A stretch of 64,000 bases of DNA from Candidatus Aenigmatarchaeota archaeon (lineage in GTDB: Archaea; Aenigmatarchaeota; Aenigmatarchaeia; GW2011-AR5), in assembly GCA_016193585.1 (NCBI GenBank), contig JACPRW010000001.1:59171-123170 (forward strand), in the 5' to 3' direction. The notes beneath the pieces were generated by a model that made no database searches, was not told where the DNA came from, and saw only the letters and a list, made by a program, of their open reading frames with translations. Positions 11,960-62,701 of the stretch are shown here, in pieces (within the stretch, counting starts at the first letter, position 1; each line of letters opens with the position of its first letter). Made by a program: the position numbers and the translations under genes.

Positions 11960-12663
11960 ATGCCCTACCGTAATAACAATTACCGGGACAACAGGCTCGT
12001 TGACAGGATTGATGCTGCAGTGCTGCGCCTTCATGAAAACATTGCCCGGTACTGGCAGAATACAACCTACCGGAGCAAGGACGTTCTCGCAAAGGGCCTG
12101 AATGCGACGTCTCTCGCATGCTGCACGGTCAATATCGGCTCCATACCGCTCACGAAGAATTACGAGGATCTCATTTTTTCAATACCGCTGGGAGCAGCCC
12201 AGGCGCGCAGGCTTGTCAGCCGCGGTCGGCAGAAAACGACGTTAGAGGCTGATGCCGAAAGAATCAGAAGAGACGTATATGATGAGCTGTACGATACAAA
12301 AATACCAAGGCTTGTCGTATTGACAGGCGGGCTTTACGCATTGGGGGGGGGGGGGGGGGGGGAATTTCATATGTCGTCGACGGTATGATCAACGGCAAGC
12401 CGGATGCCATTGCAATCGGGGCAGGGGATTTCATACCCCTTGGCATCGGGATTCTCTCTGCGATGTCTGCAGGGTATATAGATCGCGTGGATATCGGCGA
12501 TCCGCCAAAACGTCCGGAAAGAAAAAGCATCAGGGAGTGGCTACAAGAGTATGCTAGGAATGCGCTTCCTTCTCTTCCCTGTTTACCAAATCCCTTTCCC
12601 AAGCCGTCTTTCGGGACGAACGCGTCTTTGCTGACCGAGGAACTGTATCGAATGTATAGATAA
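11960..12663 (+). pseudogene. hypothetical gene split by a G20 homopolymer (ORFs 11960-12388 and 12385-12663 join with +1 G)
   Basis: Both halves look protein-like (…RLVVLTGGLYALGGGGGG / …VDGMINGKPDAIAIGAGDFIPLGIG…). The frame change coincides exactly with the poly-G run. Confidence 0.4.
12343..12362. repeat. G20 homopolymer tract
   Basis: 20 consecutive G read directly from the sequence. Confidence 0.95.
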
Positions 12664-12826
12664 CTGCGTAGTTTATGTGACGTATTATTAGCAGTTATCT
12701 ATATGCAAACTGCGTTGTATGGTGAATTGCACTGGTTATGTCCTGATATTATTTGCAATTCACCTATAGAAAATTGCGCGTTAATACGACATAACAGAAA
12801 TTTTTATTTACTGGTTTCACTATAAA
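12655..12826. repeat. cluster of four TATAG-terminated hairpin elements (F2, F3-fragment, F5, F4-partial, F1-half)
   Basis: tatagataactgcgtagtttatgtgacgtattattagcagttatctata, then tgcaaactgcgttgta, then ggtgaattgca...tgcaattcacc, then aaaattgcgcgttaatacgacataa. The element supplies the stop codon (TAA 12661-12663) of the upstream ORF. Confidence 0.8.
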
Positions 12827-12849
12827 AGCTTTGCAGTTCTATCCTAACC

Positions 12850-14121
12850 ATGAAGGCGGTAGCTGTCGTCGGCATGCAGTTCGGTGACGAGGCGAAGGGC
12901 AAGATTGTCGACGTGCTCTCGAACAGTAGGGACGTTGTTGCAGGCATTCGTTTCGCCGGCGGCAACAACGCAGGACACACGGTCGTGTTCGGCGGCAAGG
13001 AATACAAGCTGCATCACATTCCTTCTTCCATCTTCCACGGCAAGCTTTCAGTCATCGGGCATGGCACCGTGGTCAATCCTGGCGTACTGCTCGATGAAAT
13101 CAGGCAGCTCGGTGCGCTTGCTGAAAACCTGCGCATCAGCCCCAATGTCCATGTCATCATGCCGTACCATATACATGAGGATGTGCTGCTCGAAGCAAAA
13201 AAAAGCAGCAAGGTCGGTACGACCGGTAGGGGCATCGGCCCGTGCTATGCCGACAAGGCGAACAGAATCGGCATCAGGATAAGGGAGCTGTTCGACGGGG
13301 AAAGCCTGAACAGGAAGCTTGAATTCCTGATTCCGCTCAAAAACAGCACGCTGCAGCACGCATACGGCTGGGACGGTGCGCTGGACAAGGACGCAATTGC
13401 GATGGAGTATGCAGCATACGGAAAATTCCTGAAAACGTATGCTTTTGATGGCACAGTACCCGAAGGAACCGTCCTGCTTGAAGGGGCACAGGGCGCACTG
13501 CTGGACATTGACATGGGAACGTACCCGTTCGTGACGTCGTCGCACCCGACTATCGGCGGAGCGCTCGCCGGTTCAGGCATGCCGAAAGCAGACGCGGTCG
13601 TGGGCGTCATGAAAGCATACACAACAAGGGTGGGCGAGGGGCCGTTCCCGACCGAGCTGACAAACGAGGTTGGCGCGAAGCTGCGGCAGGAAGGCAGGGA
13701 ATTCGGCACGACTACCGGCAGGCCGCGGCGAGTAGGATGGCTTGACATACCCATGCTGAAGTACGCGGCCCGCGTCAACGGCGTTACAGCACTTGCACTC
13801 ACCAAGCTCGATGTTCTGGCAGGCATGCCTGAAATCAAAATCGCCGTTGTCTACGATCGTGCCGGCATACAAATTAATGCACTATCCCATGCGACTGACG
13901 TGGCAGATGCAACGCCGGTTTATGAAATAGTGAAGGGATGGAAAGCGCTGTCTCAGGAACAGTGGAATGCACTTGCCCAGGAAGGCTTTGCAGCGCTCCC
14001 TGAAGAAGCGCAGGAATATGTCAGGCTTATCGAGCGCAGCCTTGCCGTGCCTGTTGCGATTGTTTCAGTTGGTGCAGACAGGAATGCAACGATATTACGG
14101 AAGCCTCTTCACGAATTATAG
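12850..14121 (+). CDS. purA: Adenylosuccinate synthetase
   Basis: MKAVAVVGMQFGDEAKGKIVD...GTTGRGIGP...GTTTGRPRR. The stop TAG (14119-14121) lies inside the TATAG terminus of the downstream element. Confidence 0.9.
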   Translation: MKAVAVVGMQFGDEAKGKIVDVLSNSRDVVAGIRFAGGNNAGHTVVFGGKEYKLHHIPSSIFHGKLSVIGHGTVVNPGVLLDEIRQLGALAENLRISPNVHVIMPYHIHEDVLLEAKKSSKVGTTGRGIGPCYADKANRIGIRIRELFDGESLNRKLEFLIPLKNSTLQHAYGWDGALDKDAIAMEYAAYGKFLKTYAFDGTVPEGTVLLEGAQGALLDIDMGTYPFVTSSHPTIGGALAGSGMPKADAVVGVMKAYTTRVGEGPFPTELTNEVGAKLRQEGREFGTTTGRPRRVGWLDIPMLKYAARVNGVTALALTKLDVLAGMPEIKIAVVYDRAGIQINALSHATDVADATPVYEIVKGWKALSQEQWNALAQEGFAALPEEAQEYVRLIERSLAVPVAIVSVGADRNATILRKPLHEL

Positions 14122-14360
14122 ATAATTGCGCAGCTTATGTCGTATTAACGCGCAATTTTCTATAGGTGAATTGCAAATAATATCAGGACATATAGTGAAC
14201 CAAGTAAATAATCAGGTATTATATCTTGGTTCACTTACACCCAAAAAGCAAAGCTTTTTGGTGCACCGGAAAACTTTGTTTTCCGCGTGTAGCGGACAAC
14301 AAAAGTATTATGTCGGTATTCTTTTGTTGGTCCACTATAACCAGTGCAATTCACCATATA
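14117..14360. repeat. hairpin-element cluster: F4, then F5 split by a nested 150-bp element
   Basis: F5 appears intact at 41585-41632 and 55822-55870. Here it is interrupted after ...caggaca by an insert with TIRs TATAGTGAACCAAG / CTTGGTCCACTATA. Confidence 0.8.
14191..14340. mobile_element. about 150-bp MITE-like element nested in an F5 hairpin (TIR TATAGTGRACCAA, TA/ATA target duplication, three internal hairpins)
   Basis: A second copy lies at 57646-57793 in opposite orientation (roughly 95% identity by eye). The F5 halves on either side reconstitute the intact element. Confidence 0.7.
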
Positions 14361-16510: not shown

Positions 16511-16618
16511 GGATTCTTTGATACATCCCTAGTAGACATAACATCTCGCAGCAGCACACAAGACGAACAAAAGTAGGCATAAGCGCTAGTTAGGCGAAAT
16601 TTATGGAGGAAGTAGAAA

Positions 16619-17353
16619 ATGGATATAAATCCTGAGAAATTCCATAGATCTATAAGTAAAGAGTTGAAGGTAATTCAGGATCGAGTTAGGAATCTTATGG
16701 GTAGTGCACATTGGGGAGAAGAAGGGAGGTATAAGGAAGCCGTATTAAGGAGCATTATAAGAAGATTCTTGCCCAAAAATGTAAGTATAGGCACAGGATT
16801 TATTTTAAAAAAAGAGGGCGACGAGATTAAAATATCAAATCAAATAGATATTATCATCTATGACAATACGTATCCAGTGCTGTTTGCAGAAGGCGATTTT
16901 TTAATAACTACACCAGCAAATGTAAAAGGAATAATAGAGGTCAAGACCAAGTTAAATTCTTCAGATGTAATGGATGTGGTTTCTAAAGCTACAAATAATG
17001 GGAAAGTAGTTGATAATGAGATATTTAGTGGAGTATTTGTTTATAACGAAGGAAATATAGTTAACAACAGCAACATAAGTGATAACCTTAAAAGTGCTTT
17101 AAAAGAGAGTAAAGGCGTTGTGAATCATATTTGTTTAGGGGAAGACATTTTCATTAAATTTTGGCCAAGGAATCCACAAAGTAACTTCCCGAATAAATAC
17201 AGTATCTACAGAATAAAAGACCTCTCCTTTTCTTATTTTATTTCTAACCTTGCTGAACAAACATCTGAGAGTAAGCTAAAAGAAAGATGGTGGTTTTTAT
17301 ATCCCATCGAAAAAGGCAAGGAGGAATATAAAATTGAGGATATTGATGTTTAA
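16619..17353 (+). CDS. PD-(D/E)xK nuclease-fold protein, possible defense/abortive-infection component
   Basis: 244 aa with SNQIDIIIYD ... GIIEVKTKL (D...ExK). The N-terminal region is helical. The gene is AT-rich with a GGAGG SD. Confidence 0.5.
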   Translation: MDINPEKFHRSISKELKVIQDRVRNLMGSAHWGEEGRYKEAVLRSIIRRFLPKNVSIGTGFILKKEGDEIKISNQIDIIIYDNTYPVLFAEGDFLITTPANVKGIIEVKTKLNSSDVMDVVSKATNNGKVVDNEIFSGVFVYNEGNIVNNSNISDNLKSALKESKGVVNHICLGEDIFIKFWPRNPQSNFPNKYSIYRIKDLSFSYFISNLAEQTSESKLKERWWFLYPIEKGKEEYKIEDIDV

Positions 17354-17559
17354 ACTTCGCCTAACATAGCATAAAAGGTTCGTGCCTCACAGCGCTCACC
17401 CAAATTTTTGCTTCGCAAAAACTTCTTTTATGCTGGAAACGTTCAACGAAATTCCGAACATTATTTCAGGCCGCCGACACGATAGCTCTTCGCTTCCAAG
17501 CCTCTGGAACGACAAGGCGAATTTATAAGGATTATCGGAAGAATTATTTATGTGATGTT

Positions 17560-18333
17560 GTGACAAGGAAGAAGGTATCCAAGAAAGATGTACATAAATT
17601 AAAAAAAGAGCCAAAATTTTCTCAAGAGATAAAAACTTCAGTAGTAATGCCTTTCAAATGTAAATTTTGTGGCAATCTTTTTGATATTGAGCACAGACTT
17701 CCAGAAAACCATACTTGTGAAGGTCTTTCTCAATGGAAAGAAAAACATTTGAAAGAATTTCATGAAGGTAAAAGTTCTATCGCATATGAAAACACGCTGG
17801 AACCAAAACATGAAGATTCAGGCTATAAAGATTCTATGAGAAACGCCCTTCGATGTGACTCAAAACAATTTTTCAAAGGAATACCAGAAAAATTCAATAA
17901 ACAGGCAATAAGATTGAATATTCATCGACTAATTCAAAAAAATATGAATGATATCGGCATATGGCTCATAGGCTTATTTATTATCTTTACAGCTTTCAAT
18001 CAGATACTAAAATACTCTATACTTGAAAGTATTTCATGGATTTTTGTTTACGTTGCAGAAATTATTTTTATATATAAGTTGATTAAGCGTGTTGACAAAA
18101 TAGAAGTAAATTCAGATTTGAGTATTTGGGGTTTAAAAATATTATCATTCATCTTTATCCTTATTGGAGTGTATATATTCTTATTCGGGTCTTTGGCATT
18201 AGCCACCGTCTATAGCCTTTATGTTCTCGGGCTTCTTGGTATAATAGCGCTAGGATTCTTTTCAATTGGCGCTTTTCTGATTTTCAAATTCAAACGAAGA
18301 AGTGGGAGCATTGTATGGGTCGGAAGAGCGTAG
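17560..18333 (+). CDS. Zn-finger (AN1-like CxxC...HxxxxxHxC) protein with two C-terminal TM helices
   Basis: [20 protein letters not shown] motif and a K-rich N-terminus, followed by two long hydrophobic helices. The start is uncertain (alternative Met at 17647). Confidence 0.45.
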
Positions 18334-18426
18334 AAGAAATTATTGTAATGAGAAAGTCGTTATAAAACTTATTTTGGCTAGCCTTAAATACTTATATAAA
18401 ATCATATATACATAAACTTATATAGA

Positions 18427-18699
18427 GTGGTAACCATGCAAAAAAGAGAAATTATACACTATCCTAACCTTAGCACAATGCTTGAAGTAGAGAAGGTCCT
18501 GAAAGAAGCAGACGGACCTATATCCAAGGAAGAACTGAAAAGGAGGCTTCCGACAAAGATTATGCACCAGACACTTAACCTTATTTTGGCATACATGGAA
18601 AACAGGGGGCTGATTTTATCAGGCCCGAAAGGCATACTCTGGACATACAATCCCAGCCCGAAACTGCAGAAAGCCATAGAAAAAGGCATTGAGATATGA
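18427..18699 (+). CDS. small winged-helix-like protein (putative antitoxin/regulator)
   Basis: 90 aa. Its stop overlaps the next gene's start (ATGA). Confidence 0.4.
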   Translation: MVTMQKREIIHYPNLSTMLEVEKVLKEADGPISKEELKRRLPTKIMHQTLNLILAYMENRGLILSGPKGILWTYNPSPKLQKAIEKGIEI

Positions 18700-19067
18700 G
18701 TAGAAATATCAACGTCATACTTAGCGAAGAAGCTACCAAGCAATATGAAGAACTGAACAGGATTGTTGGTGATGAAATAAAGAAAGGCATAACGAATTCT
18801 ATTCATCAGCAACTACTCAAATCCATAAAACAGAAATCTGAGCTTCTGAAAATCAATCCTCAGGCTGGAATACACATATCGAAAAAGCTTATACCGAAAA
18901 TCTATATAGACAAATACGATGTCGATAATCTGTGGAAAATAGATTTGTCTGGTTACTGGAGAATGACGTATACGTTGCGGACGACAGAAATAGAAATAAC
19001 GAACTTCGTTCTAGATATAGTAGATCACGTAACGTACGACAAAATACTTGGATACAAGAAAAAATAA
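18696..19067 (+). CDS. RelE/ParE-like toxin
   Basis: N-terminal ...SEEATKQYEEL...IKKGI...LKINP and C-terminal GYWRMTYTL...ITNFVLDIVDHVTY, matching the RelE/ParE fold pattern. Confidence 0.5.
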   Translation: MSRNINVILSEEATKQYEELNRIVGDEIKKGITNSIHQQLLKSIKQKSELLKINPQAGIHISKKLIPKIYIDKYDVDNLWKIDLSGYWRMTYTLRTTEIEITNFVLDIVDHVTYDKILGYKKK

Positions 19068-19466
19068 ACATCGCCTTGTAGCCAAAACCATTCTGAACCT
19101 GAAGAGCCACTTTCAGGCCGTCGGCGGTCCTGTTTTCAGTATTGTGCTGAATGCCTTGCATTCGCACATCTTCGGAGAAATATAATTTCTCCGAGATTCA
19201 GAAAATCTTCGATTTTCGAGAAATTTGCACGAACCTATGGTTCGGTGCAGTATTGTCGGAACTCTTCGCTTTCCTGCGGAAAGCTCGCTTTTCTTTCAGA
19301 AAAGTCGCTGAACAGCGATTAGAAGATCCGCTTCTGCGAAGCTCCATCCAAATGGCGATTATATAAAAAGAAATAATCGCCACTTCTTCTAATCGCATAC
19401 GTTATGCTCAATTCGTGGGCTCGCCGGTTAAAAAGTTTATTAAGCCAACTTAACTATTGATTAATT

Positions 19467-22159
19467 ATGGTAGACATTTTATATATTTTTTCAGGTTCAC
19501 CGTTGCTCTACATTCTCATATTAACATTAATTGCATTAGGTACATTCCTAATCTGGAAGTCATTCAAAACAAAATATAAATTCATTTTTTTAGGGGTTTT
19601 AGGCTTGGGAATAATCACTGTTCTCCTATTTTCTTTTATTAATACTCAACAAGGATCACCTGAACCGGATGCATCTGGAAAATCAGGCTACACATTGACT
19701 CTAAAAGAAGTGTGGGGTTCGAAGAGATGGATAAAGACCTTCGAAAGGCCCGGTAGTGATTATCCATTTGCAGTTCTGCAAACCTCTGACGGCGGGTATG
19801 TGGTTAGCGGGAGAACAAATAACGGCACGAAAGATTGCTATGGCGGGACCCCTATGATTTTAACATTCCTTTTCAAGACAGACGCGGATGGAAACAAAGT
19901 CTGGGAAAAGTTTCATTACGCTGGCAGAATAGTTTCAATCCAGCAGACTTCTGACGGAGGGCTGGTGGCTACAGGATCAATAGCTGCCACTGACACAGGA
20001 ATTGATGTTTACCTTGTAAAAACAGACGCGAAAGGCAGTATTACTTGGGAGAAGAGCTATGGTGAGAGTGATCCCGAGGGAGGATTTTCCGTCCAGCAGA
20101 CTTCTGACGGAGGGTATATCATTGCGGGGGGGGGACAGGTAGACGCTTGGGAAATCAAGGGATTTACTTGCTTAAAGTTGACAGCAACGGAAACAAATTG
20201 TGGAGCAGGATATTCGCCAAAGATTTAAAGACGGATGAGGAACCGCAACTGGTCCAGCAGGCTGCTGATGGAGGCTATATAGTTGTTGGGTGGAGGAAAT
20301 CGCAAGGAATGCCCAGCATAAAAGAAGACCCTAATGACCCATACATTGATGACGACGTCTATTTGCTAAGGACTGATTCATTAGGGAATAAGATTTGGGA
20401 GAAGACGATTGACGCATTTGGGAAGCGTGCAGACGAGAGGCTTGTGCATGATGCCTTGCAAACACCTGACGGAGGTTATGTAATTGTTGGAGGCTCAGCA
20501 CCCATTGTAAGATCAAATGGCGCACTACAAAGTTCGAGCCCCTATGTCTATTTGCTCAAGATTGATTCTGACGGGAACAAAACATGGACGAAGGATTATG
20601 GTATGGGAATTGGTCATTTAGTTCAGCTAACGTCCGACGGCGGTTACATAATCACTGGAGAGGTAATAGACAACGTGGGTCCAAATTACCTTGTGAAGAT
20701 AGGAACGGACAGTGACGGGAATAAGTTGTGGGAGAAACCCATTGAAATACTTAATACATATCAGGGCAAGGATTACCCAAATGTGGTTAAGCCAACCTTT
20801 GACAGCGGCTACATAGTCCTTGGAACCAGAGAATATGGCGACCTTATGGGATATGCCGGCATGCTGGAATCTGATACCCTGCTCATGAAGATAGAAGAAA
20901 CAGACACACTAAGATTGCCGGATTATGAGCGGGTACCGCCGCGTGAAACGAAGTTGCCCACCCAAGTTGAGCTACTGACTCCGACGGGAAAAGGATGGAT
21001 GAAGACAGTTGGAGGGAGTTTAGGCTCAAAGGCGCGAGCCGTGCAGAAGACATCTGACGGAGGCTATATAGTTGCAGGTTGGACTCATCGTAGTGTGACA
21101 GTACCTTATGGATTGAACGACACGACAGTCCTGACACAAAGGGAAGCATATATTGTTAAGACAGATGGAAATGGAAATAAAGTTTGGGAGAAGAGCTTTG
21201 GAGGAGATGGGTTTGAAGACGGGTTTTCAGTACAGCAAACCCCTGACAGCGGGTATATGGTTCTTGGAATCAAGGAGGCATATGCCTATCTGATAAAAAC
21301 AGATGCTTATGGAAACACGCAGTGGAATAAGACACTTGGTGAAAATTATGGTGATGTGGGTTTTTCACTCCTGCAGGCTTCTGACAGTGGATACATAATT
21401 GTTGGGATTACACAAGGCCATGGTGCGACCCCGTGTAACGCAAAAGAACCTGAGCGAGGCGCATCAGCTGATGTCTATATCATAAAGACTGATGCTGACG
21501 GAAACAAATTGTGGGAAAAAGTAATTGGCGGAACGCATATGGATATAGGATATTTTGTGCAGAAGACTTCTGACGGCAATTATATAATAACTGGAATGAC
21601 AGCTTCATTTAGTGAAAAAGGAGTCGAGGATGTTTACCTGCTTAAAATAGACAGCCATGGCAACAAATTGTGGGAAAAGGCAATTGGGGGGGACAAAAGC
21701 GAGATGGGCTATTCAGTACAACAAACTACTGACGGCGGTTATGTAATTGTTGGGCAAACAGTTTGGTCAATCAAAGGAGCAGATATGGGTGAAGGGGGTT
21801 ATGCTAGCCAGTCAGATATCTATTTAATAAAAACAGATACATACGGGAACAAAATCTGGGAAAAGACGTTTGGGGGGAGTTCGATGGATAGGGGATTTTC
21901 AGTGCAGCAGACTTCCGACGGCGGGTACATCATTACCGGAGACACAGACGGGCATCTTTACCTCTTCAAAACAGATGCAGACGGGAATAAAGTCTGGGAA
22001 AAGGCATTCAAAAGAGACGAGACCAAGCCATTCACGGGACGGTCTGTCAAGCAGACTACTGACGGCGGGTACATGGTTGTTGCAAATACGTTTTACACGT
22101 CAACACCTGCCTATCAGCCTATAATACTCATAAAGACAGACGCAAACGGGGATGTGTGA
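19467..22159 (+). pseudogene. secreted multi-repeat beta-propeller-like surface protein, frameshifted at a G9 tract
   Basis: It has an N-terminal TM/signal segment and 15 or more roughly 55-aa repeats (QQTSDGGYII.G....D.YL.KTD..GNK.WEK..GG). ORF 19467-20228 (frame 0) and ORF 20147-22159 (frame 2) share the same repeat and join if the G9 run at 20126-20134 gains one G. Confidence 0.6.
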
Positions 22160-23087
22160 AATTGTGAGAAAAACAATTTTTATAATCCCTTTGCTGATTT
22201 TGATTGTTTTTGTCAGTGGCTGCGTCGGGCAGGGACCTGGCATGAATCCGACTGTAATAACCGGCAAGACAACCATTGAGAAAAGCGGTTTGTACGTCTT
22301 GAACAGCGACATCTCCTGCACCGCCGAAGGTGAAATGGACGTATGCATCGATATACAGAGGCATGACGCTGTGCTTGATTGCCAGGGTCACAGCATAACT
22401 CTGGCGAATCAACAGGCCCGCCGCGGCCCTGCCAGTACCGGGATATACATAGCTGGCAGCGGCGTGGAGGACGTGACTGCCAGGAATACCGTCAGGAATT
22501 GCAGGATTGAGAACTTTGCATTCGGCATATTCCTCAAGGCCAGTTCCAACAACTTCATCAACAACACCATCAGCAACAATGGCATCGGAATCTACTACGA
22601 CGACTTTTCCTCGTACAACATTTTCATAAACAACACGGTGAGTAATAACAACAATAGAGGCATCTACCTGTTCATGCGCTCGTCCAACAACAATTTTACA
22701 GGCAACATTGTAAGAAACAATAGCATATACGGCATCATTATCACCTGCGCGGCACACCACAACACCTTTTCCAACAACGTGGTTGAAGGCAACGGATACG
22801 GCAGCACGAGTGACGAGAACGGCGGAATCTACATCCTCAACTCATACGCCAACGTCTTTTCAGGCAACGGGATATGCAACAACTCGAAAACCATTAAATG
22901 CAAGTTCGATGCCACAATGGAAGGCATAAGTGATATCTGCAGGCCGCAAGTCCTTCCAGACACCATTCCAATTGACAGGGATGCACAGGAAGCCGGAAAC
23001 CTCATTGACGGCGGGGGAAACACCTGTGGTCCGAGCTCCATGAGCTGCGACGGCACCACCATAAGCTGCATCAGGGGTTGCCCATGA
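22152..23087 (+). CDS. right-handed parallel beta-helix (NosD/pectin-lyase-like) lipoprotein
   Basis: Lipobox FVSGC, then N/G-rich approximately 22-aa repeats (NNTISNNGIGIYY, NNTVSNNNNRGIYL, ...). Confidence 0.65.
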   Translation: MCEIVRKTIFIIPLLILIVFVSGCVGQGPGMNPTVITGKTTIEKSGLYVLNSDISCTAEGEMDVCIDIQRHDAVLDCQGHSITLANQQARRGPASTGIYIAGSGVEDVTARNTVRNCRIENFAFGIFLKASSNNFINNTISNNGIGIYYDDFSSYNIFINNTVSNNNNRGIYLFMRSSNNNFTGNIVRNNSIYGIIITCAAHHNTFSNNVVEGNGYGSTSDENGGIYILNSYANVFSGNGICNNSKTIKCKFDATMEGISDICRPQVLPDTIPIDRDAQEAGNLIDGGGNTCGPSSMSCDGTTISCIRGCP

Positions 23088-24604
23088 AAAATCTGGCTAT
23101 TTTCTTTTTATTGTTTATTTCAATAGCACTTATCAGCGGCTGTGTCCAACAACCGTCTAAACTAAAGGATTCAGAAACACCGGGCTATGCATCATCAGGC
23201 ACAACCGGCAAATATCCGGAACAAAATCCAGATTGTGCAAACTCAGGTGTGAAAACCTGGGCAAAAGTGTTTGGCGGGCCTGGATTTGATTATGCAACTT
23301 CACTCCAGCAAACTCCTGATGGAGGGTATGTGGTTACTGGACTCCTTAATTCCGGACCGACGGACTCGACCGGCGAAAAGCAGTATGATGTCCTTTTGTT
23401 CAAGGTTGATATGGACGGGAACAAAGTATGGGAGAAGTCGTACGGGGGGAATGAGAACGATTTCGCATTCTCACTGCAACAGACTGCTGACGGTGGATAC
23501 ATTATCGGAGGAGAAACGCGTTCCTTTGAAGATAAAGGTGCCAATGCCTATCTTATAAAAACCGATGCCGATGGCAATCTGCAATGGAACAGGACATTCG
23601 ATATGTGCGGAGGAAACGAGTCTGACAGGGTACTCTCAGTGAGGCAGACTTCTGATGGTGGGTACATAAGTGCAGGCGTTACATTTTCCTGCAGCCAAAA
23701 GCTCTGGGGGGAACAGCTCCCATGGGACGACTCCTTCCTTCTTAAAACAGATGCAAACGGTAATATGTTGTGGGAGCGCATTTTTGGATGGAAGGAGAAC
23801 ATAGACCAGGCGCTTTCGGTCCAGCAGACCTCTGACGGAGGATTCGTGGCCATCGGATACATACACTATTATGACCCAAACGGACCTATCTATATCTATG
23901 GACGAGACATTTACTTGGTAAAAACTGATAAAGATGGAAACATACTGTGGAACAAAACATTCGGAATCGGTAACAAGACATCTCTTGGAAACGGATTGAA
24001 TAATGCGGAAGTGTTACAGCAGACTTCCGATGGAGGATATGTGGTTGCCGGACAAGGAGCCGACAGACGACTATATCTGCTGAAAGCTGATGCGAACGGC
24101 AATAAAGTCTGGGAAAAATCAATTGGAGATCTGAATTTGCATAGCAGGGGATACTCTGTAAAGGAAACAACTGACGGCGGCTACTTCATTATAGGGGCAC
24201 GATGCATTCCAGACTATGAACCGAGAACCATAATTGTCGACAGTAATGTTATTCTTGAGCATCCATGTGAGTTCTACTTCCTGAAAACTGATGCGAACGG
24301 AAACATAGTATCGGAGATGTCCGGCGGGCGCACTTTCAATGGCGTGCTATGGCCAGGCCAGCAGACTCCTGACGGGGGATACATAATTGTTGAAACTGTA
24401 TTCCCAAGAGTGAGCGCGACCCAGTATGCAAAGACGACTGACATCCTCATGATGAAGCTGAATGAGAATGGAGTTGTATGTAACCTTACTTATGGCCAAC
24501 CCTGCACACTGGTGCCTGAGCCAGAGTGGATAAACAACCCCGCATGCAAAAATCTTATTTATGATGAAGAGTACATTCACAATCCCTATCTCCCAGAGCG
24601 ATAA
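23078..24604 (+). CDS. beta-propeller repeat lipoprotein (same repeat family as 19467-22159)
   Basis: Lipobox LISGC, then repeated QQTSDGGY...YLLK.DANGNKVWEK units. Confidence 0.65.
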   Translation: MPMKNLAIFFLLFISIALISGCVQQPSKLKDSETPGYASSGTTGKYPEQNPDCANSGVKTWAKVFGGPGFDYATSLQQTPDGGYVVTGLLNSGPTDSTGEKQYDVLLFKVDMDGNKVWEKSYGGNENDFAFSLQQTADGGYIIGGETRSFEDKGANAYLIKTDADGNLQWNRTFDMCGGNESDRVLSVRQTSDGGYISAGVTFSCSQKLWGEQLPWDDSFLLKTDANGNMLWERIFGWKENIDQALSVQQTSDGGFVAIGYIHYYDPNGPIYIYGRDIYLVKTDKDGNILWNKTFGIGNKTSLGNGLNNAEVLQQTSDGGYVVAGQGADRRLYLLKADANGNKVWEKSIGDLNLHSRGYSVKETTDGGYFIIGARCIPDYEPRTIIVDSNVILEHPCEFYFLKTDANGNIVSEMSGGRTFNGVLWPGQQTPDGGYIIVETVFPRVSATQYAKTTDILMMKLNENGVVCNLTYGQPCTLVPEPEWINNPACKNLIYDEEYIHNPYLPER

Positions 24605-24668
24605 GACTCCGGGTAAATTCCATAATGGTCGATTAAAATGAGAAACGCGAAGGAAATGAGTAAAGGTA

Positions 24669-25235
24669 TTGTTAGCTTTGATTGTCTTTGTCAGCGGCTG
24701 CGTCCAAGAGGAAAAACAGGTTGAAAAGCAAGAAGAAAAACCAAAAATAGAGGAACGCTATTTTCCTGGCTGGGCACCAGCTCCGCTTGGATTGGCAATT
24801 ACCCCAGATGGAAAAACAGCCTACATTCCCTTCGGACTTGACGATGCGTTACTGGTAGTGAACTTATCAACATTTGCTGTCATCGATTCGATAGATGTAT
24901 CTGAAGCCGGCAACATGCTTCTTTTAACTGCTACAGTCTTGGGTCCAGACGGGAAAAAGCTTTACGTTTCCAACTATGGAACCAAGAACGTGATGGTGGT
25001 AGATACAGAAAACAAACGTGTTGAGAAGGTGCTTCCGTTAAATCCACTCCATGCAGCCGCCATCGCAATATCACGAGATGGAAGCAAAGCCTACGCGCCC
25101 TCAAAAGATGGGGGACTGTACGTAATAAATACTTTAGACAATTCGTATAACCGCATTTTTATACCCGGAGTTATTTTTGGCCCGGTAGTGCCTTCTTCCA
25201 GCAATCCAGAGTTAGTGTATTGGCCGACTTCATGA
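24669..25235 (+). CDS. YVTN-family beta-propeller lipoprotein
   Basis: TTG start with lipobox IVFVSGC, then ITPDGKTAYIP.../GPDGKKLYVSNYGTKNVMVVD.../SRDGSKAYAP YVTN-type blades. Confidence 0.55.
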   Translation: MLALIVFVSGCVQEEKQVEKQEEKPKIEERYFPGWAPAPLGLAITPDGKTAYIPFGLDDALLVVNLSTFAVIDSIDVSEAGNMLLLTATVLGPDGKKLYVSNYGTKNVMVVDTENKRVEKVLPLNPLHAAAIAISRDGSKAYAPSKDGGLYVINTLDNSYNRIFIPGVIFGPVVPSSSNPELVYWPTS

Positions 25236-25259
25236 AGTCCCGATACGTTGTATGCATTG

Positions 25260-26048
25260 TCACGCTACCTTCTCCCGCACATACCCCACCGCATTCCTGA
25301 AAATCTGCATGCCTCCGGCTTCCTTCGCCTCGCCGCGTGTCCAGCGCGGGTGGTTGGTAACGTCGTTAAAAGCTTCAGGGTGCGGCATCATGCCGAAGAC
25401 ACGGCCGGTTTCGTCGCAGATGCCGGCGATGCCATCAGTTGCTCCATTGGGATTCCAGGGATAGCCGGCTTCGGTTCCGTCAGGGCTGATGTACTGCAGC
25501 GCCACATGGCCGTTGTCATGCAGCCGCCGGCGCGTTGCGTTGTCAAGGGGAATCAGATTCCCCTCGCCGTGCCTGACCACCTGATACAGGCGGTCGATGC
25601 CTTTCGTGAACACGCACGGCGATTTCTTATTTGCTTTCAGGTGCACCCAGCGGTTTTCAAAGCGGCCAGACGCATTGGCCGCCAGCGTCACCGTCTGCGT
25701 GAAATAATCTTTGCCGAATGCCGGCAGCAGCCCAAGCTTTGCGATAATCTGAAACCCGTTGCATGCGCCGAATATGAGCTTGCCGTCCGCAATGAACTGC
25801 TCCAGATCAGGGCGCATTGTGTGCTTGAGTTTGATGGCAAATACCTTGCCGCCGGCGATGTCGTCCCCGAACGCAAAGCCGCCGGGTATGGCGAGAATAT
25901 GGAACGAATCGAGACTGATGTTCTTTTTCAGCAGGTCGCTGAAGTGCGCTATAGTGCTCTCCGCTCCTGCGTTCCTGAAGGAATGCGCCATTTCGTACTC
26001 GGCATTGAGGCCGTAGCCGGTGACGACAAGTACTTTGACGTTTTTCAT
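25260..26048 (-). CDS. purQ: FGAM synthase glutamine amidotransferase subunit
   Basis: MKNVKVLVVTGYGLNAEYEMA... class-I GATase. The ATG lies 2 nt after the purL stop (taactATG). Confidence 0.85.
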   Translation of the reverse strand: MKNVKVLVVTGYGLNAEYEMAHSFRNAGAESTIAHFSDLLKKNISLDSFHILAIPGGFAFGDDIAGGKVFAIKLKHTMRPDLEQFIADGKLIFGACNGFQIIAKLGLLPAFGKDYFTQTVTLAANASGRFENRWVHLKANKKSPCVFTKGIDRLYQVVRHGEGNLIPLDNATRRRLHDNGHVALQYISPDGTEAGYPWNPNGATDGIAGICDETGRVFGMMPHPEAFNDVTNHPRWTRGEAKEAGGMQIFRNAVGYVREKVA

Positions 26049-34346: not shown

Positions 34347-34445
34347 TATAGATAACTGCGTAGTTTATGTGACGTATTATTAGCAGTTATCTATATGCAA
34401 ACTGCGTTGTAGTATGTAACCTAAGTAACGCAGTTTACTATATAG
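34347..34445. repeat. hairpin elements F2 + F3 (tatagataactgcg...gcagttatctata; tgcaaactgcgttgta...taacgcagtttacta)
   Basis: F2 is identical to the element at 12657-12705. It lies at the junction of the conserved ftsY-pfdA block. Confidence 0.8.
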
Positions 34446-39195: not shown

Positions 39196-39666
39196 TTATT
39201 CAGACTCGACCTTCTGCTGCTCGATTTTCGGCGCTTCCTCGGGCTTCTTGGTGCCTTCGGCAGCCTTTTCTTCCTCCTGCTTCTTCACCGCCTTCGGCCC
39301 CAGCCGCTCCATGAGCTTTTCTTTCATGCCCTTCTTCTCGGTCTTTGGTGTTGCCTTGAATTCCTCGTAGGAGAAGCCGAGCAGCTCGGCCCTGACTGTT
39401 TCGCCGTCCCTGACTGCCCTTACCCTGACCTTGCGCGGCGGGCGCTTGATGCCCCGTGTCCATACCGCTTCGTTGAGGTTCCTGCCGAGCCTCACGTCGC
39501 CTGACTTCATGTGGCGTGCCAGGTAGCTCCTGATGAGCTGCATCGCGTACGGCGTCCGCTTGAAGTACATCTTGCGGAACGCCTTCCTGAGCGGTATCGT
39601 GTACACGCGCTCATGCTGCGCCTGCGCAGGAGCTTCGCGCTTCGGTTCTGTTTTTTCGTCCGCCAC
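39196..39666 (-). CDS. rpl31e: 50S ribosomal protein L31e (with long K/E-rich C-terminal extension)
   Basis: ERVYTIPLRKA...YLARHMK...VRLGRNLNEAVWTRGIKRPPRKVRVRAVR is the L31e core. About 60 extra C-terminal residues are KE-rich. Confidence 0.85.
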   Translation of the reverse strand: MADEKTEPKREAPAQAQHERVYTIPLRKAFRKMYFKRTPYAMQLIRSYLARHMKSGDVRLGRNLNEAVWTRGIKRPPRKVRVRAVRDGETVRAELLGFSYEEFKATPKTEKKGMKEKLMERLGPKAVKKQEEEKAAEGTKKPEEAPKIEQQKVESE

Positions 39667-39678
39667 GTTTCATCGACC

Positions 39679-39778
39679 TATATACTAAACTGCGAAACTT
39701 ATATGACGCAGATTCGCAGTTTGTATACAGATAACTGCTCATAATATGTCATGCAAATTATGCAGTTATCTATATCTT
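39679..39778. repeat. hairpin elements F3-variant + F2-variant (tatactaaactgcgaa...ttcgcagtttgtata ; cagataactgctcataatatgtcatgcaaattatgcagttatctata)
   Basis: It is identical to 62388-62478. It overlaps the 3' end and stop of rpl39e. Confidence 0.8.
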
Positions 39779-39934
39779 GTTCCGTCCCCTTCTCCAGTGC
39801 TTCGCGGTGACGCGCACGCGCCTTGTCCGCGCCCGCTTGAGCGAGTGCTTCTTGATGTCCGCCCAGCGCGGAGCGCTTCGCCTGCGAGCGGCGATGAGCT
39901 TGAGCTTCTTGCCGTATGCTTTCCGTGATGCCAT
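39770..39934 (-). CDS. rpl39e: 50S ribosomal protein L39e
   Basis: The 54-aa MASRKAYGKKLKLIAARRRSAPRWADIKKHSLKRARTRRVRVTAKHWRRGRNKI matches L39e. The last codons and the stop lie inside the hairpin element. Confidence 0.8.
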   Translation of the reverse strand: MASRKAYGKKLKLIAARRRSAPRWADIKKHSLKRARTRRVRVTAKHWRRGRNKI

Positions 39935-40115
39935 ATCAGAACCCATCATGTTACGCTTTAATTATCGGTTCCGATACCTCCGGTATTATCAGAACCCATC
40001 CATTTTATTCATAAACACTTTGTGTTTATCAGCTTCTCCAAAGCTGGAATGTAGCCGGTTCCCGAACCTCCGCTACTCAGATTTCCCGCTTGGTGCCGTA
40101 TTACTTTTTGCTAAG

Positions 40116-40424
40116 CTATTTCCTCCGTATCCGGATGTCGCGCTTGCTACTCAGCTTCTTAAGGATGGCTATGAGCTGCTCCTCGCTGATTCTGCCCCTC
40201 AGCTGCCCTGCATGGTGCAGCTGCGCAAGGTACGCCTCGAGTTGCATCGCCATGTCAGGCTTCACCACCTTGAGGTTCGCCAGTCGCTCGCGCGCTCTCG
40301 GCTCGAGTATCTGCATCGAAATCGTCTTGAGCGTCGCTTCGATCTGCTGTTGCTGCATCTGTTGCTGCATCTGTTGCTGCAGGAGCCTCTTCTTGATTTC
40401 TTCTTCCTCCATATAGGAACCCAT
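40116..40424 (-). CDS. PDCD5/TFAR19-like dsDNA-binding protein (archaeal DNA-binding protein family)
   Basis: It has a QQQM low-complexity stretch, then EATLKTISMQILEPRARERLANLKVVKPDMAMQLEAYL, and sits in the conserved slot between rps19e and rpl39e. Confidence 0.7.
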   Translation of the reverse strand: MGSYMEEEEIKKRLLQQQMQQQMQQQQIEATLKTISMQILEPRARERLANLKVVKPDMAMQLEAYLAQLHHAGQLRGRISEEQLIAILKKLSSKRDIRIRRK

Positions 40425-40430
40425 CCATTT

Positions 40431-40527
40431 TATAGTAAACTGCGTTACTTAGGTTACATACTACAACGCAGTTTGCATATAAATAACTGCTAATAATACG
40501 TCACATAAACTACGCAGTTATTCATAT
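40431..40527. repeat. hairpin elements F3 + F2 (reverse orientation)
   Basis: tatagtaaactgcgttacttaggttacatactacaacgcagtttgcatata + aataactgctaataatacgtcacataaactacgcagttattcata. Confidence 0.8.
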
Positions 40528-40711
40528 TTTCACATCTTTCAGATGTGCCAGCCTCTCCGAGACTGCACTATAGTCAGTTCCTATTACCTCCGACAGGAAC
40601 CACACGCTTCACTATGCTGGACACACCGACGGTGCGTCAGCTCGTTTTCAGTCCTGAGACCCCCTGTTACAGGAAGGCGGCGAAACCTTGTAATCAATCC
40701 CAGGAATGATT

Positions 40712-41125
40712 TCACGCGACGCTTTTGGCGACAGCATTGAGGAACCGCTTGCCATCGGCAGTGAGTATCCTGCCCTTCTTCGGCTTGTCAACTTTCTGGA
40801 CAAATCCCGCTTTCTCAAGGTCCTGGAGGATGACGCGGACAATCTTGCCGCCGCCCCTGGCGAAATGCGCCGGCTTGTGGCCGCGCCTGTGGAGACCGCC
40901 GTAATAGGTTCGCAGCCGCTCGACGCCAACAGGGCCGTTCAGGTGGATGCGGCGCATGATGCTTGCTGCACGGACGTACCACCAGTCGGGATTTTCAGGG
41001 ACCCGGTCCCGCGAGACGCCTGTCTTCACGTAGAGGGACCACGACGGCGCGCTCATTTTTTTCTTGAGTTCATCCGAAGCCTTCGCTACAAGGAGCTGCG
41101 GATTTTTGTCGTAGATTGAGACCAT
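40712..41125 (-). CDS. rps19e: 30S ribosomal protein S19e
   Basis: 137 aa with ...WYVRAASIMRRIHLNGPVGVERLRTYYGG...KPAHFARGGGKIVR. Confidence 0.9.
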   Translation of the reverse strand: MVSIYDKNPQLLVAKASDELKKKMSAPSWSLYVKTGVSRDRVPENPDWWYVRAASIMRRIHLNGPVGVERLRTYYGGLHRRGHKPAHFARGGGKIVRVILQDLEKAGFVQKVDKPKKGRILTADGKRFLNAVAKSVA

Positions 41126-41196
41126 GTTGCGTCACATCATCCGGTATGGAAAATGCACCAGAGCACGCTGCACCACGGCTGCAGGCACATGGTGCG

Positions 41197-41511
41197 CTAC
41201 AGCTGTTTTTTTGGCTTGTACGGTATTCTCATTATCTTACCGCACGAAAAGCATTTAATAGTTATGACACCATCCCTGAGCCTGCGCTGCGCATTCTCTG
41301 CCGTGAAATATGCATGGCAGTGTTTGCAGAAGGCGCGCTTCAGCTTGCCGAGCCTCACATTATACCGCATGCCGATTCGCTTTGCCAGCGAGGTGTACCG
41401 CTTTGCCAGTACAGGCTCCCTGGCCGACGCCTTTTTCGCCTCGTCGAGAAGAATCCGTATCCGTTCCTTGGCTATCCTGACCTGGTATTCAGGCTTCCCG
41501 CGCGAGCGCAT
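41197..41511 (-). CDS. rnp4: RNase P protein component 4 (Rpp21/Rnp4)
   Basis: RIRILLDEAKK...AKRYTSLAKRI..RYNVRL...CKHCHAY...IKCFSCGKIMR, a Zn-ribbon Rpp21 pattern. Confidence 0.8.
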   Translation of the reverse strand: MRSRGKPEYQVRIAKERIRILLDEAKKASAREPVLAKRYTSLAKRIGMRYNVRLGKLKRAFCKHCHAYFTAENAQRRLRDGVITIKCFSCGKIMRIPYKPKKQL

Positions 41512-41537
41512 GGGAATACCATGCAGGAACGAGGATT

Positions 41538-41634
41538 TATAGATAATTGCGCAGCTTATGTCGTATTAACGCGCAATTTTCTATAGGTGAATTGCAAATA
41601 ATATCAGGACATAACCAGTGCAATTCACCATATA
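41538..41634. repeat. hairpin elements F4 + F5 (intact F5)
   Basis: tatagataattgcgcagcttatgtcgtattaacgcgcaattttctata + ggtgaattgcaaataatatcaggacataaccagtgcaattcaccata. Confidence 0.8.
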
Positions 41635-41705
41635 ACCATCAAAAGAAATAACCGGCATGCAGGGCGCAGCGTTGTGTCTCCCGAAAGAGACACCGGACAT
41701 GCTTT

Positions 41706-50690: not shown

Positions 50691-50785
50691 AGCCACCGAA
50701 GGGAATTGAACCCTTAACCTGCAGTTCAATCGGAAGGTTTCTCCTCTTACAAAACTGCTGCTCTGCCAGGTTGAGCTACGGTGGC
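50691..50785 (-). tRNA. tRNA-Thr(UGU) with 21-nt intron in the anticodon loop
   Basis: Hand-folded as GCCACCG-TA-GCTC-AACCTGGCA-GAGC-A-GCAGT-TTTGTAA-[agaggagaaaccttccgattg]-ACTGC-AGGTT-AAGGG-TTCAATT-CCCTT-CGGTGGC-T. Every stem pairs and the anticodon is TGT. Confidence 0.8.
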
Positions 50786-53730: not shown

Positions 53731-54441
53731 TTAAAGGTTGCGCCTTGAGGCAAGGTTTAAATATGGTACTGCCGCCGAACCAGCGCCGTTGCCGGCATGT
53801 GCAGGGCAATGCAAGCTTTCGTAGGCGCACGTGACGCTGCTTCCCCGGTCATGGGACAGCTTTTTTGCCGCGTACATAGCGGTGTCAGCCCGTCCAAGGA
53901 GTTCATGAGGGGTTGCCGGCTGTTTTCTGCGCGGGTTGTACGTTGCAGTGCCCGCTGCCAGCGTGATGCGGTGGGCACCGTCGAACGGGTAGCTGTCGAT
54001 GGAAGTTCCCAACCGGTTTGCCGCTGCTATGGCGCCGCGCCTGCCGGTTTCAGGCATGATGACGACAAATTCGTCGCCGCCATAGCGGATGACACTGTCA
54101 GAGTTCCGCATCCCGGTGACAAAGATAGCCGCGGCAGTGCGCAACAGCTCATCCCCAGCCTGATGGCCATAGGTGTCGTTGAACGGCTTGAGTCCGTTGA
54201 TGTCGAGCATGACGACAGACAATGACCGCTGGTAACGGGAGGCCCGTGCTGTTTCATCAAAGAGTATGCCATCCAGTTCCTCGCGACTGTACACGCCGGT
54301 AAGCGTGTCGTAGCGGGGCATTCGTACCTTGGTCCACCACCTGAGATTGACGAGCAGCCGCTCTGCCACCACCTGTCTGAGGAACGCGGCTACCGCTGGG
54401 TCATGCTCTGCCAACCCAATGATAGATTGTTGTATATCCAT
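53731..54441 (-). CDS. GGDEF-domain diguanylate cyclase (no obvious sensor domain)
   Basis: ...LDINGLKPFNDTYGHQAGDELL...RYGGDEFVVIM...ADTAMYAAKK are canonical GGDEF motifs. Confidence 0.75.
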   Translation of the reverse strand: MDIQQSIIGLAEHDPAVAAFLRQVVAERLLVNLRWWTKVRMPRYDTLTGVYSREELDGILFDETARASRYQRSLSVVMLDINGLKPFNDTYGHQAGDELLRTAAAIFVTGMRNSDSVIRYGGDEFVVIMPETGRRGAIAAANRLGTSIDSYPFDGAHRITLAAGTATYNPRRKQPATPHELLGRADTAMYAAKKLSHDRGSSVTCAYESLHCPAHAGNGAGSAAVPYLNLASRRNL

Positions 54442-55743: not shown

Positions 55744-55910
55744 TATAGTAAACTGCGTTACTTAGGTTACATGATATAGATAATTGCGCAGCTTATGTCG
55801 TATTAACGCGCAATTTTCTATAGGTGAATTGCAAATAATATCAGGACATAACCAGTGCAATTCACCATACAACGCAGTTTGCAGTCACATAAACTACGCA
55901 GTTATCTATA
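55744..55910. repeat. hairpin-element cluster F3(half)-F4-F5-F3(half)-F2(half)
   Basis: tatagtaaactgcgttacttaggttacatgata | tagataattgcgcagcttatgtcgtattaacgcgcaattttctata | ggtgaattgca...tgcaattcacca | acaacgcagtttgcag | cacataaactacgcagttatctata. Confidence 0.8.
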
Positions 55911-55954
55911 TGTAGTGAACATTCTGTAGGAGACAGTGCCACACCCTGAGCAAT

Positions 55955-56300
55955 GGGCACGTGAACATAGCTTTCATAGCAGGTTCACGTAATAACCAAA
56001 CTTTTCACCTGAACCTGCTATACGGTATGTTCTGCATAAAATGTTCACTAACCAACAGAACATACTATCAGTATGCACATGAACAGCTCGGAGTTTGCGC
56101 CATGAGGCATGAACAGTGCCCGCCGATAATAAGCGCCGGGTTCGTGTATCAGGTACCTGTACGTGACAGAAAAGACGTACCTCTTCTCGAACTGTGGATA
56201 TATGATAGTAAAGAACATTGATTTTGGAACATTTTATGATGTTCTTTCCCTATAGCAGATTGCAGCTAAAAGTTCCATTATTATTACAATCTGCTATAAG
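55955..56300. repeat. second family of palindromic elements (GTGAACA/TGTTCAC-type and TATAGCAGATTG...CAATCTGCTATA)
   Basis: cgtgaacatagctttcatagcaggttcacg; gtatgttctgcataaaatgttcactaaccaacagaacatac; aagaacattgattttggaacattttatgatgttctt; tatagcagattgcagctaaaagttccattattattacaatctgctata. The last two recur at 62578-62670. Confidence 0.7.
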
Positions 56301-57599: not shown

Positions 57600-57645
57600 T
57601 AGTAGAATAATGCGTTCAAAGGCTTTATAATATAATATAGCGGAC

Positions 57646-57793
57646 CAACAAAAGAATACCGGCATATTACTTTTGTTGTCCGCTACACGCGGAAAACAAA
57701 GTTTTCCGGTGCACCAAAAAGCTTTGCTTTTTGGGTGTGTATCATATCTTGGTTCACGTACGATTATTTACTTGGTTCACTATAAATGCCAAC
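57646..57793. mobile_element. second copy of the ~150-bp MITE-like element (reverse orientation relative to 14191-14340)
   Basis: tatagcggaccaacaaaag...ccggaaaacaaagttttccgg...caccaaaaagctttgctttttgggtg...cttggttcac...ttggttcactata. It has three internal perfect hairpins and TATAG termini. Confidence 0.7.
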
Positions 57794-57934
57794 CTCTCCC
57801 GGAAGCTCGACATAACAGTTGGCGGTGCAGTTTTGATACGTGATCAGTAATTTATAGCTCTACAAGGAAACAAACAGGATATATTCCCCTGTGAGCATGT
57901 CCCTCATGGCAGCGGCATTCATGCGGTGTAAAGA

Positions 57935-58029
57935 TATAGTTAACCAAGTAAAGAATCCGGATATTATAACTTGGTTCACTATATGTGACCAACTTGTGTA
58001 ATACCTGAATATTAAGTTGGTCAGCTATA
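57935..58029. repeat. two adjacent small hairpin elements (tatagttaaccaag...cttggttcactata ; tatatgtgaccaactt...aagttggtcagctata)
   Basis: Perfect 9-10 bp inverted repeats with 20-nt loops and TATA termini. Confidence 0.75.
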
Positions 58030-58181
58030 ATCAATAAGTTCTCTGTCGTAGCCCGGTTGCTCGTCGTGTGTAAACTGGATGGAAGGTCATGTTACACCAA
58101 ACAGAGTAATGGGAGACCTTCGGCTTCGATGCTGTATGCCGAGTAGCCGTGCTCATAGCATCCGACTGAGAACAAATCGTG

Positions 58182-62336: not shown

Positions 62337-62670
62337 TATATAGTGAAACAAGAAAAGATTCCGGATATTATTTTCTGGTTTCACATATACTAAACTGCGA
62401 AACTTATATGACGCAGATTCGCAGTTTGTATACAGATAACTGCTCATAATATGTCATGCAAATTATGCAGTTATCTATACATGGTAAAGCAAAGCATTAC
62501 CTGTACAGATGAAACGTTGTTTCACCATGTATAGCAAACAAGGAAGTTATCCTGTTTATTTCCTTGTATTGCTATAATAGTAAAGGACATTGATTCTGGA
62601 ACATTTTACAATGTTCTTTCCCTATAGCAGATTGCAGCTAAAAGTTCCATTATTATTACAATCTGCTATA
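62337..62670. repeat. large composite cluster of about 7 different hairpin elements (F1, F3v, F2v, TATACATGGT-type, F6, AAGGACAT-type, TATAGCAGATTG-type)
   Basis: 62388-62478 is identical to 39688-39778. 62520-62580 is the reverse complement of 1483-1530. 62578-62670 is near-identical to 56205-56297. Confidence 0.8.
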
Positions 62671-62701
62671 AGACTTATAAAAGCACAATACTAGTTATTT
62701 C

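Follow-up and report, generated by a model that had tools for sequence, protein, structure and literature searches.

The window, a 64,000-nt stretch of an Aenigmatarchaeota genome, contains four genes whose stop codons were placed inside hairpin repeats by the initial annotation, raising the question of whether the repeats supply these stops and whether native C-terminal residues are replaced in the process, as that annotation had also proposed. The stop positions of rpl39e, purA, ORF 12385-12663 and ORF 11404-11784 were verified, all four were within hairpin repeats, and the nucleotides serving today as stops are part of the repeat elements. On the minus strand rpl39e ends ...AAC AAG ATA TAG followed by ATAACTGC, the first three bases of the hairpin being this TAG, and purA ends ...CAC GAA TTA TAG followed by ATAATTGCGC. 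ORF 12385-12663 ends ...CGA ATG TAT AGA TAA within TATAGATAACTGC, while ORF 11404-11784 enters the loop of the hairpin at 11375-11422 and reads TAT AGG GAA CCC AGT AAA TAA. The elements thus physically supply the stop codons. The hairpins themselves are probably non-autonomous foldback MITEs that target TA dinucleotides, the supply of stops being a by-product and not a replacement of C-termini.

Approximately 35 hairpins in 14 intergenic clusters were identified in the window by a hairpin scan and direct reading, a density of about one hairpin per 2 kb in this genome, and all 14 clusters were outside confirmed coding sequence. The hairpins belong to a dozen sub-families with common TATAG...CTATA ends, and the motif TATAGATAACTGC was matched 23 times with up to 2 mismatches compared to 0.90 expected. 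Folding energies of twelve hairpins ranged from -12.5 to -20.3 kcal/mol, and their z-scores from -2.4 to -6.6. Single-hairpin units are approximately 45 nt, two-hairpin units approximately 90 nt and three-hairpin units approximately 145 nt (45-145 nt overall), and the true element ends are TAG...CTA, within terminal inverted repeats of the form TAG(W)WAAYTGCG...CGCARTTW(W)CTA. These repeats read TATAGATAACTGCG / TATAGTAAACTGCG in the A+E elements and TATAGATAATTGCGC / TATGGTGAATTGCAC in the B+C elements. Copies 5-23 kb apart within the window were 97-100% identical, including the F+A' copies at 39681-39774 and 62386-62479 (94/94), the A+E copies at 34347-34442 and 40431-40526 (93/96), the intact B+C copies at 41538-41633 and 55775-55870 (95/96) and the two copies of G (52/52). 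Elements occur in both orientations, and truncated and half copies are common. The features of the window are given in the table below.

Features of the window that carry the analysis; elements are labelled MITE according to the preferred reading and relic stops are those predicted by reconstruction.
Feature	Position	Strand	Remarks
Single-hairpin MITE (D-like)	11375-11422	-	TA duplications 11423-11424, 11373-11374
Relic native stop TAG of 124-aa ORF	11372-11374		Beside the D-like MITE
Degraded cluster	12655-12828	+	Hairpin A (12655-12703), half E, C, truncated reversed B, half another hairpin
purA	12850-14121	+	Stop TAG 14119-14121 is the first 3 bases of the B+C MITE
B+C two-hairpin MITE, split by nested element	14119-14356	+	TA duplications 14117-14118, 14357-14358
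145-nt three-hairpin MITE in hairpin C loop	14193-14337	+	Flanked by TA 14191-14192 and TA 14338-14339
Relic native purA stop TAA	14359-14361	+	Reconstruction CAC GAA TTA TAA TCG
A+E two-hairpin MITE	34347-34442	+	Between ftsY start and prefoldin stop
Relic native rpl39e stop TAG	39678-39680	-	11 nt upstream of rpl31e GTG start (39666)
TA target-site duplication, rpl31e side	39681-39682
Two-hairpin MITE (sub-families F + A')	39683-39772	-	Between rpl39e and rpl31e; 39772-39770 is the rpl39e stop TAG
TA target-site duplication, rpl39e side	39773-39774		Last two bases of final Ile codon ATA
rpl39e	39770-39934	-	54 aa, native-length C-terminus ...HWRRGRNKI
A+E MITE	40431-40526	-	End forms TTTACTATAAAATGG upstream of dsDNA-binding protein gene
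B+C MITE	41538-41633	+	End forms TCTATAAATCC; RNase P (Rpr2) gene starts 26 nt downstream
Hairpin E with B+C MITE in loop at TA, then truncated A	55744-55912	+
150-nt three-hairpin MITE	57636-57785	+	Reverse-orientation relative of 14193-14337; inverted repeat TATAGCGGACCAACAAAAG
Cluster of at least 6 hairpin elements	62340-62672		Divergent intergenic region; second F+A' copy, G copy
Isolated hairpin, same type	1530-1579
Further hairpin pairs	55974-56068, 56205-56300, 57933-58030

Pre-insertion sites were reconstructed by removing an element together with one TA. For rpl39e this gives AAC AAG ATA TAG GTCGATGAAAC GTG, the GTG being the rpl31e start, and the predicted empty sites for the rpl39e-rpl31e junction are AACAAGATATAGGTCGATGAAACGTG and AACAAGATATAGGTCGATGAAACGTGGCGG. 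An element-free orthologous locus (L143/L144) from a relative with L39e 76% identical reads AGG ATT TAG GTGAATTTTT GTG GCC GAA, and its layout of stop, 10-nt spacer and rpl31e start is that of the reconstructed site in the window, where the spacer is 11 nt. The empty site is that of a relative, no presence/absence polymorphism having been seen within one species, which counts against the MITE reading. The L39e end ...RRGRNKI had been regarded as unusual in the initial annotation; ten other cluster representatives were found to end in exactly WRRGRNKI. Nearly all Aenigmatarchaeota L39e proteins are 54 aa long and end WRRG[RK]xK[IV], solved eL39 structures likewise end at WRR+5, and, as judged from these sequences, WRRGRNKI is the clade-standard L39e end. 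In addition, the orthologues at L139 (stop TGA) and L141 (stop TAA) share the NKI end with no element after the stop, and an identical C-terminus without an element is the very finding that the initial annotation had named as speaking against its claim of C-terminus replacement.

The replacement reading holds that elements insert within the 3' ends of coding sequences, cut off native residues and the terminator, and substitute residues and stops encoded by the element. It is refuted for rpl39e by the orthologues above, the L39e end being of clade-standard length, and in both rpl39e and purA the codon that now ends the gene is again a native stop once the element and one TA are excised. Replacement of C-terminal residues thus did not occur in rpl39e and most probably not in purA either. 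The Pfam profile is covered over its full length by PurA, whose alignment to solved structures reaches residue 420 of 423 and so comes to within 3 residues of their ends. The closest PurA homologue does have a tail 3 residues longer (...RELFSV compared to ...HEL in the window), as replacement would have it, and tail lengths vary among PurA homologues. As the nearest distinct homologue is only 52% identical, the native TAA of purA rests on the reconstruction, for which the predicted empty sites are CACGAATTATAATCGTACC and CTTCACGAATTATAATCGTACCTTT.

The element downstream of purA also contains a nested insertion, and it is from the nested insertions that the target-site duplication can be read. 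The 145-nt nested element has inverted repeats TAGTGAACCAA / TTGGTCCACTA (also given as TAGTGAACCAA / TAGTGGACCAA), and intact C copies have a single TA at the point of insertion (GGACATAACCAG). The loop of intact hairpin C reads GGACA-TA-ACCAG in 3 copies, compared to GGACA-TA-[TAGTGAACC...GGTCCACTA]-TA-ACCAG downstream of purA. At 55744-55912 a B+C element lies in an E loop at ...ATGA-TA-[...]-TA-CAACGC, compared to ACATAC-TA-CAACGC in the intact E hairpin. Nested insertions with a duplicated TA indicate MITE-type elements that make a TA target-site duplication. The 1.4-kb Logan contigs carrying purA (L001/L002) break at repeats 22 nt past the purA stop and, on the other side, 91 nt before the purA start. 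The downstream break lies inside the repeat and so elements fragment assemblies at gene boundaries.

Element-encoded C-terminal residues, suggested by the initial annotation, were present in the two hypothetical ORFs. The 124-aa ORF now continues into the element for 6 codons (YREPSK), its stop being at 11404-11406; its reconstruction reads AAG CGT TAG, and the target of the insertion would have been the TA of the native stop. This ORF has a single distant homologue. The TAT AGA TAA of hairpin A closes a 233-aa hypothetical gene (11960-12663), to which the element adds 2 residues (YR), and ORF 12385-12663 is the C-terminal part of this gene, frameshifted in this assembly. These two cases, with 6 and 2 element-encoded residues, can be counted in favour of replacement, but the residues are read as extensions added after the native end and not as substitutions. 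ORFs 11960-12388 and 12385-12663 form a single intact 233-aa gene in a Logan assembly (P0123), while the copy in the window has a frameshift within a run of Gly codons (GGGGGG), which is either an assembly error or the mark of a pseudogene. A homologue search with the 233-aa protein gave no homologues outside its own organism.

The same families, including the A+E and B+C arrangements, were found in other assemblies: on 13 contigs of other DPANN assemblies assigned to Aenigmatarchaeota, Woesearchaeota, Nanoarchaeia and unclassified archaea, and in at least 120 metagenome stretches. The A-type hairpin pattern was also present in three IMG/VR contigs classed as viral (L136-L138), of which L136 is apparently the same 11,343-bp sequence as the metagenome locus L069. 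Stop positions of ORFs of at least 80 codons were counted at 95 unique TATAGATAAYTGC termini taken from genomes other than this one and from metagenomes. An ORF ended on the terminal TAG in 5 cases and on the TAA in 8, 5 ORFs stopped deeper inside the element in the third frame, and approximately 31 stops were spread over the 150 nt upstream. The element-at-stop pattern is general beyond the window.

It could be argued that AT-rich intergenic DNA is full of stops and that the overlaps are meaningless coincidence. The element terminus does contain stops in two frames, as described in the initial annotation, and since two of the three frames entering TATAGATAA meet a stop, any ORF that reaches an element in these frames ends there. 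Thirteen stops on two positions compared to approximately 0.2 per position upstream, together with the recovery of native stops described below and the motif excess given above, leave coincidence with hardly any probability, and the positional statistics reject it. That elements at gene 3' ends are commoner than chance predicts was borne out.

Reconstruction was extended to loci in other genomes. All five cases in which the present stop is the TAG of the element (rpl39e, purA, L015 with TAG, L062 with TAG and L066 with TGA) recovered a native stop on excision, in frame and with the codon position unchanged. Where the present stop is the TAA of TAT AGA TAA, a TAA or TAG was restored in 4 of 8, a stop occurred two codons later in 2, and no nearby stop was present in the remaining 2 (metagenome loci L014 and L042). 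The base after the right-hand TA, used to ask whether the TA of the native stop had been the target, was A or G in only 4 of the 8 TAT AGA TAA cases, which is the chance level. This result and the two loci with no nearby stop count against the MITE reading. The 5 third-frame ORFs in other genomes, which run 22-64 nt into an element, would fit replacement of the C-terminus, as would the reconstructions at L040, where the last residue changes from K to R, and L094, where one residue is lost. Set against these, the same-codon stop regained in all five element-TAG cases makes replacement improbable as a general explanation.

Under the MITE reading, insertion would occur at a TA dinucleotide with duplication of the TA in the fashion of IS630 or Tc1/mariner elements. 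The genome is compact with approximately 53% G+C, TA occurs 3.2 times per 100 nt in coding DNA compared to 7.0 in non-coding DNA, and rough gene calls gave TAA or TAG as the stop of 41 genes out of 69. Because TA is rare in coding DNA, harmless TA sites are concentrated at stops and promoter boxes. The tolerated sites would mainly be the stop codon itself (TAA/TAG), the junction of last codon and stop (NTA-TAR), and, for the gene that follows, its A/T-rich promoter box. Each element starts with TAG, often TAGATAA, so that with TA as the target a landing beside a stop would be neutral. Insertion at NTA-TAR would, as at rpl39e and purA, end the frame at the same codon on the TAG of the element. 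If instead the TA of a native stop were hit, the result would be TAT AGA TAA and the addition of Tyr-Arg, or YREPSK in the GGGAA sub-family, and truncating insertions would presumably be purged by selection. On the outward side, CTA followed by TA and flanking A's may remake a TATA-like box. The supply of stops by the elements would accordingly be a by-product of TA targeting and purifying selection against truncating insertions. We infer the transposition chemistry from the TA duplication alone, and the transposase type, the timing of insertion and any effect on transcription are likewise inferred.

A Pfam search of 30 ORFs in the window gave no transposase domain, including Y1_Tnp, clustering of 1184 ORFs from 135 loci gave no recurrent neighbouring protein, and no inverted-repeat pair 0.5-3.5 kb apart enclosed a transposase; these results describe this sample rather than the genomes. 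The lack of a conserved neighbour at the loci, and of a transposase in the window, fits a non-autonomous element; that the searches gave no autonomous element or transposase with matching inverted repeats also counts against the MITE reading. The lack bears also on a different origin, namely REP/BIME-like or IS200/IS605-derived hairpins whose single-stranded DNA is mobilised by a Y1 (HUH) transposase (RAYT or TnpA). REP/BIME sequences with RAYT are, like the elements of the window, short extragenic palindromes in clusters of alternating orientation just past genes, and the very small size, the mixed-orientation clusters at gene ends and the short conserved motif (TATAG) at the hairpin foot would all suit such an origin. 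Neither the scanned ORFs nor the genes neighbouring the 135 loci included a Y1 transposase, and true terminal inverted repeats span the two-hairpin units. REPs depend on a Y1 transposase, whose transposition leaves no target duplication, whereas the elements of the window have both a TA duplication and true inverted repeats. REP/RAYT membership as such is excluded by this duplication, and we consider an origin of this kind highly unlikely.

The ends facing downstream genes were also examined. Nine cluster edges precede a start codon by 14-39 nt and form CTATAAAA-like junctions, several of which read CTATAAAAG, CTATAAAAT, CTATAAATC or CTATATAC, and element-free genes have boxes such as CTTTAAAAA or TTTTAAT at -22 to -50. 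This suggests, at the level of sequence, that an insertion into a promoter box may likewise be repaired by the element end. In the metagenome set, the distances from A-type ends to start codons had no peak, and for this reason the supply of promoters is kept only as a minor rival.

It is nevertheless conceivable that the hairpins are functional gene-punctuation modules under selection, providing hairpins to mRNA 3' ends, as terminator, stabiliser or processing site, together with a TATA box for the next gene, the overlap with stops then reflecting genome compaction. Stable hairpins do lie directly after stops, and the nine edges mentioned above precede housekeeping-gene starts with CTATAAAA-, CTATAAAT- and CTATATAC-type junctions. 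In other genomes the edges of fully palindromic A-type hairpins were within 40 nt of 12 stops and 7 starts, and A-type hairpins were within 150 nt of approximately 50 stops and 21 starts. Stem sequences are conserved in Aenigmatarchaeota, Woesearchaeota and Nanoarchaeia assemblies, and this conservation across DPANN phyla, greater than expected of a purely selfish element, counts against the MITE reading. A role under selection is at odds, however, with elements that are nested, truncated, degraded and found in both orientations, with the expression of the same operon without elements in close relatives, and with the start-codon distances in the wider set, which have no peak. It also had no counterpart in Rfam 15, where a search of the whole window gave only a tRNA at gathering score and a search of 39600-41700 gave no match at E<=1. 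On balance a punctuation function appears rather unlikely.

A related and similarly doubtful proposal is that the elements act as portable gene punctuation in reduced DPANN genomes, with a stop on the inward side (TA-TAG, TAGATAA) and a TATA box on the outward side (CTA-TA+AAA), in which case the intervening hairpin would end or protect the upstream transcript. If so, insertions could, without cost, divide operons such as rpl39e-rpl31e into units under separate control, and the conservation of stems across phyla would reflect a shared candidate TA-specific transposase or host binding protein.

Comparison with known systems is consistent with small MITEs. IS630/Tc1-mariner MITEs (MITEEc1, Stowaway-like) likewise have terminal inverted repeats, a TA duplication and no coding capacity, and occur as many near-identical intergenic copies with nested insertions. 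The elements of the window are by comparison much smaller (45-145 nt), are hosted by DPANN archaea, and have one to three complete hairpins each, since every inverted repeat has an internal copy with which it pairs as well.

The Correia elements of Neisseria (CREE / NEMIS) share a target duplication and inverted repeats that begin TATAG, and their ends can create promoter boxes in Neisseria (PMC2649163). They measure 100-155 bp, contain an IHF site alongside a 26-bp repeat TATAG[CT]GGATTAACAAAAATCAGGAC, and occur in Neisseria only, in contrast to the shorter elements with many sub-families in an archaeal host described here. The inverted repeat TATAG[CT]GGACCAACAAAAG of the 145-150-nt MITEs (57636-57654, 14321-14339) agrees with the Correia repeat TATAG[CT]GGATTAACAAAAA at 16 of its first 19 bases, and Correia-like repeats were matched twice in the window compared to 0.03 expected. 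The likeness is limited to these 16 of 19 bases and to one sub-family, the other sub-families being unrelated in sequence, and the elements were not assigned to the Correia family. The similarity could reflect related transposase specificity or convergence, any homology being putative.

Among bacterial MITEs, QMITE1 and QMITE2 of Coxiella burnetii extend 1-50 bp into the C-terminal ends of functional genes, and in one case the element supplies the C-terminal residues, after which the stop follows (PMC5896051). They differ from the elements described here in sequence family and host, and in the window the native stop position was, by reconstruction, kept exactly for the two annotated genes. Stop takeover is new for these archaea and already known for bacterial MITEs. 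A census has reported high MITE density in some DPANN genomes and did not describe this family (PMC11602168), which appears to be a family of unusually small hairpin MITEs that is undescribed in the literature searched. Other classes were considered for the hairpins and rejected. Readings as C/D-box sRNAs, CRISPR, attC or origin boxes lacked the defining motifs, the adjacent hairpins being without spacers. An integron attC site requires R''/R' core sites (RYYYAAC...GTTRRRY) and an integrase, whereas the ends here are TATAG/CTATA and the flanking genes are housekeeping genes (rpl39e, purA, ftsY).

Stop codons of essential genes inside repeats can be explained by the simple rule of a TA target and an element that starts with TAG. 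The family stands out for its extreme smallness, its density, its spread across DPANN phyla and its apparently neutral insertion at stops and promoter boxes. Such repeats break short-read assemblies at gene ends, inflate intergenic regions and can mislead gene callers on C-termini, and, having ends with dual stop and TATA potential, they are candidate agents in the rewiring of transcription units where genomes are minimal.

Hairpins of interest outside the window included a single A-type hairpin in an Aenigmatarchaeota MAG (L003, JAGVVY010000010.1, 5400-5500), located 8 nt past what is apparently the 3' terminus of a tRNA gene (...GGTTCAAATCCGCTCGGGCCCA). Two unrelated DPANN contigs (L008, 1466-1576; L015, 2052-2212) share, near their MITE clusters, another type of conserved hairpin repeat, whose core is CACGACTAAAGTCGTG.

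Within the window, the region 16600-25300 is a low-G+C island of 34-48% compared to approximately 55% elsewhere, contains no hairpin elements and encodes DUF6602, AN1 zinc-finger, PQQ/beta-propeller-like and NosD/beta-helix proteins. This region is probably foreign DNA. A tRNA-Tyr(GTA) gene on the minus strand (50691-50785) is 95 nt long compared to a model of 71 positions, and its excess length makes an intron probable. The motif GGTGAT or GTGAT occurs 5-10 nt before many starts (among them 38057, 46494, 47207 and 52024) in a Shine-Dalgarno-like position, and if it functions as a Shine-Dalgarno sequence, most mRNAs here would be leadered rather than leaderless. The product of the minus-strand gene at 53731-54414 is 227 aa long and gave a strong match to the GGDEF diguanylate-cyclase domain (E = 3.5e-36), which to our knowledge is unusual in an archaeon.
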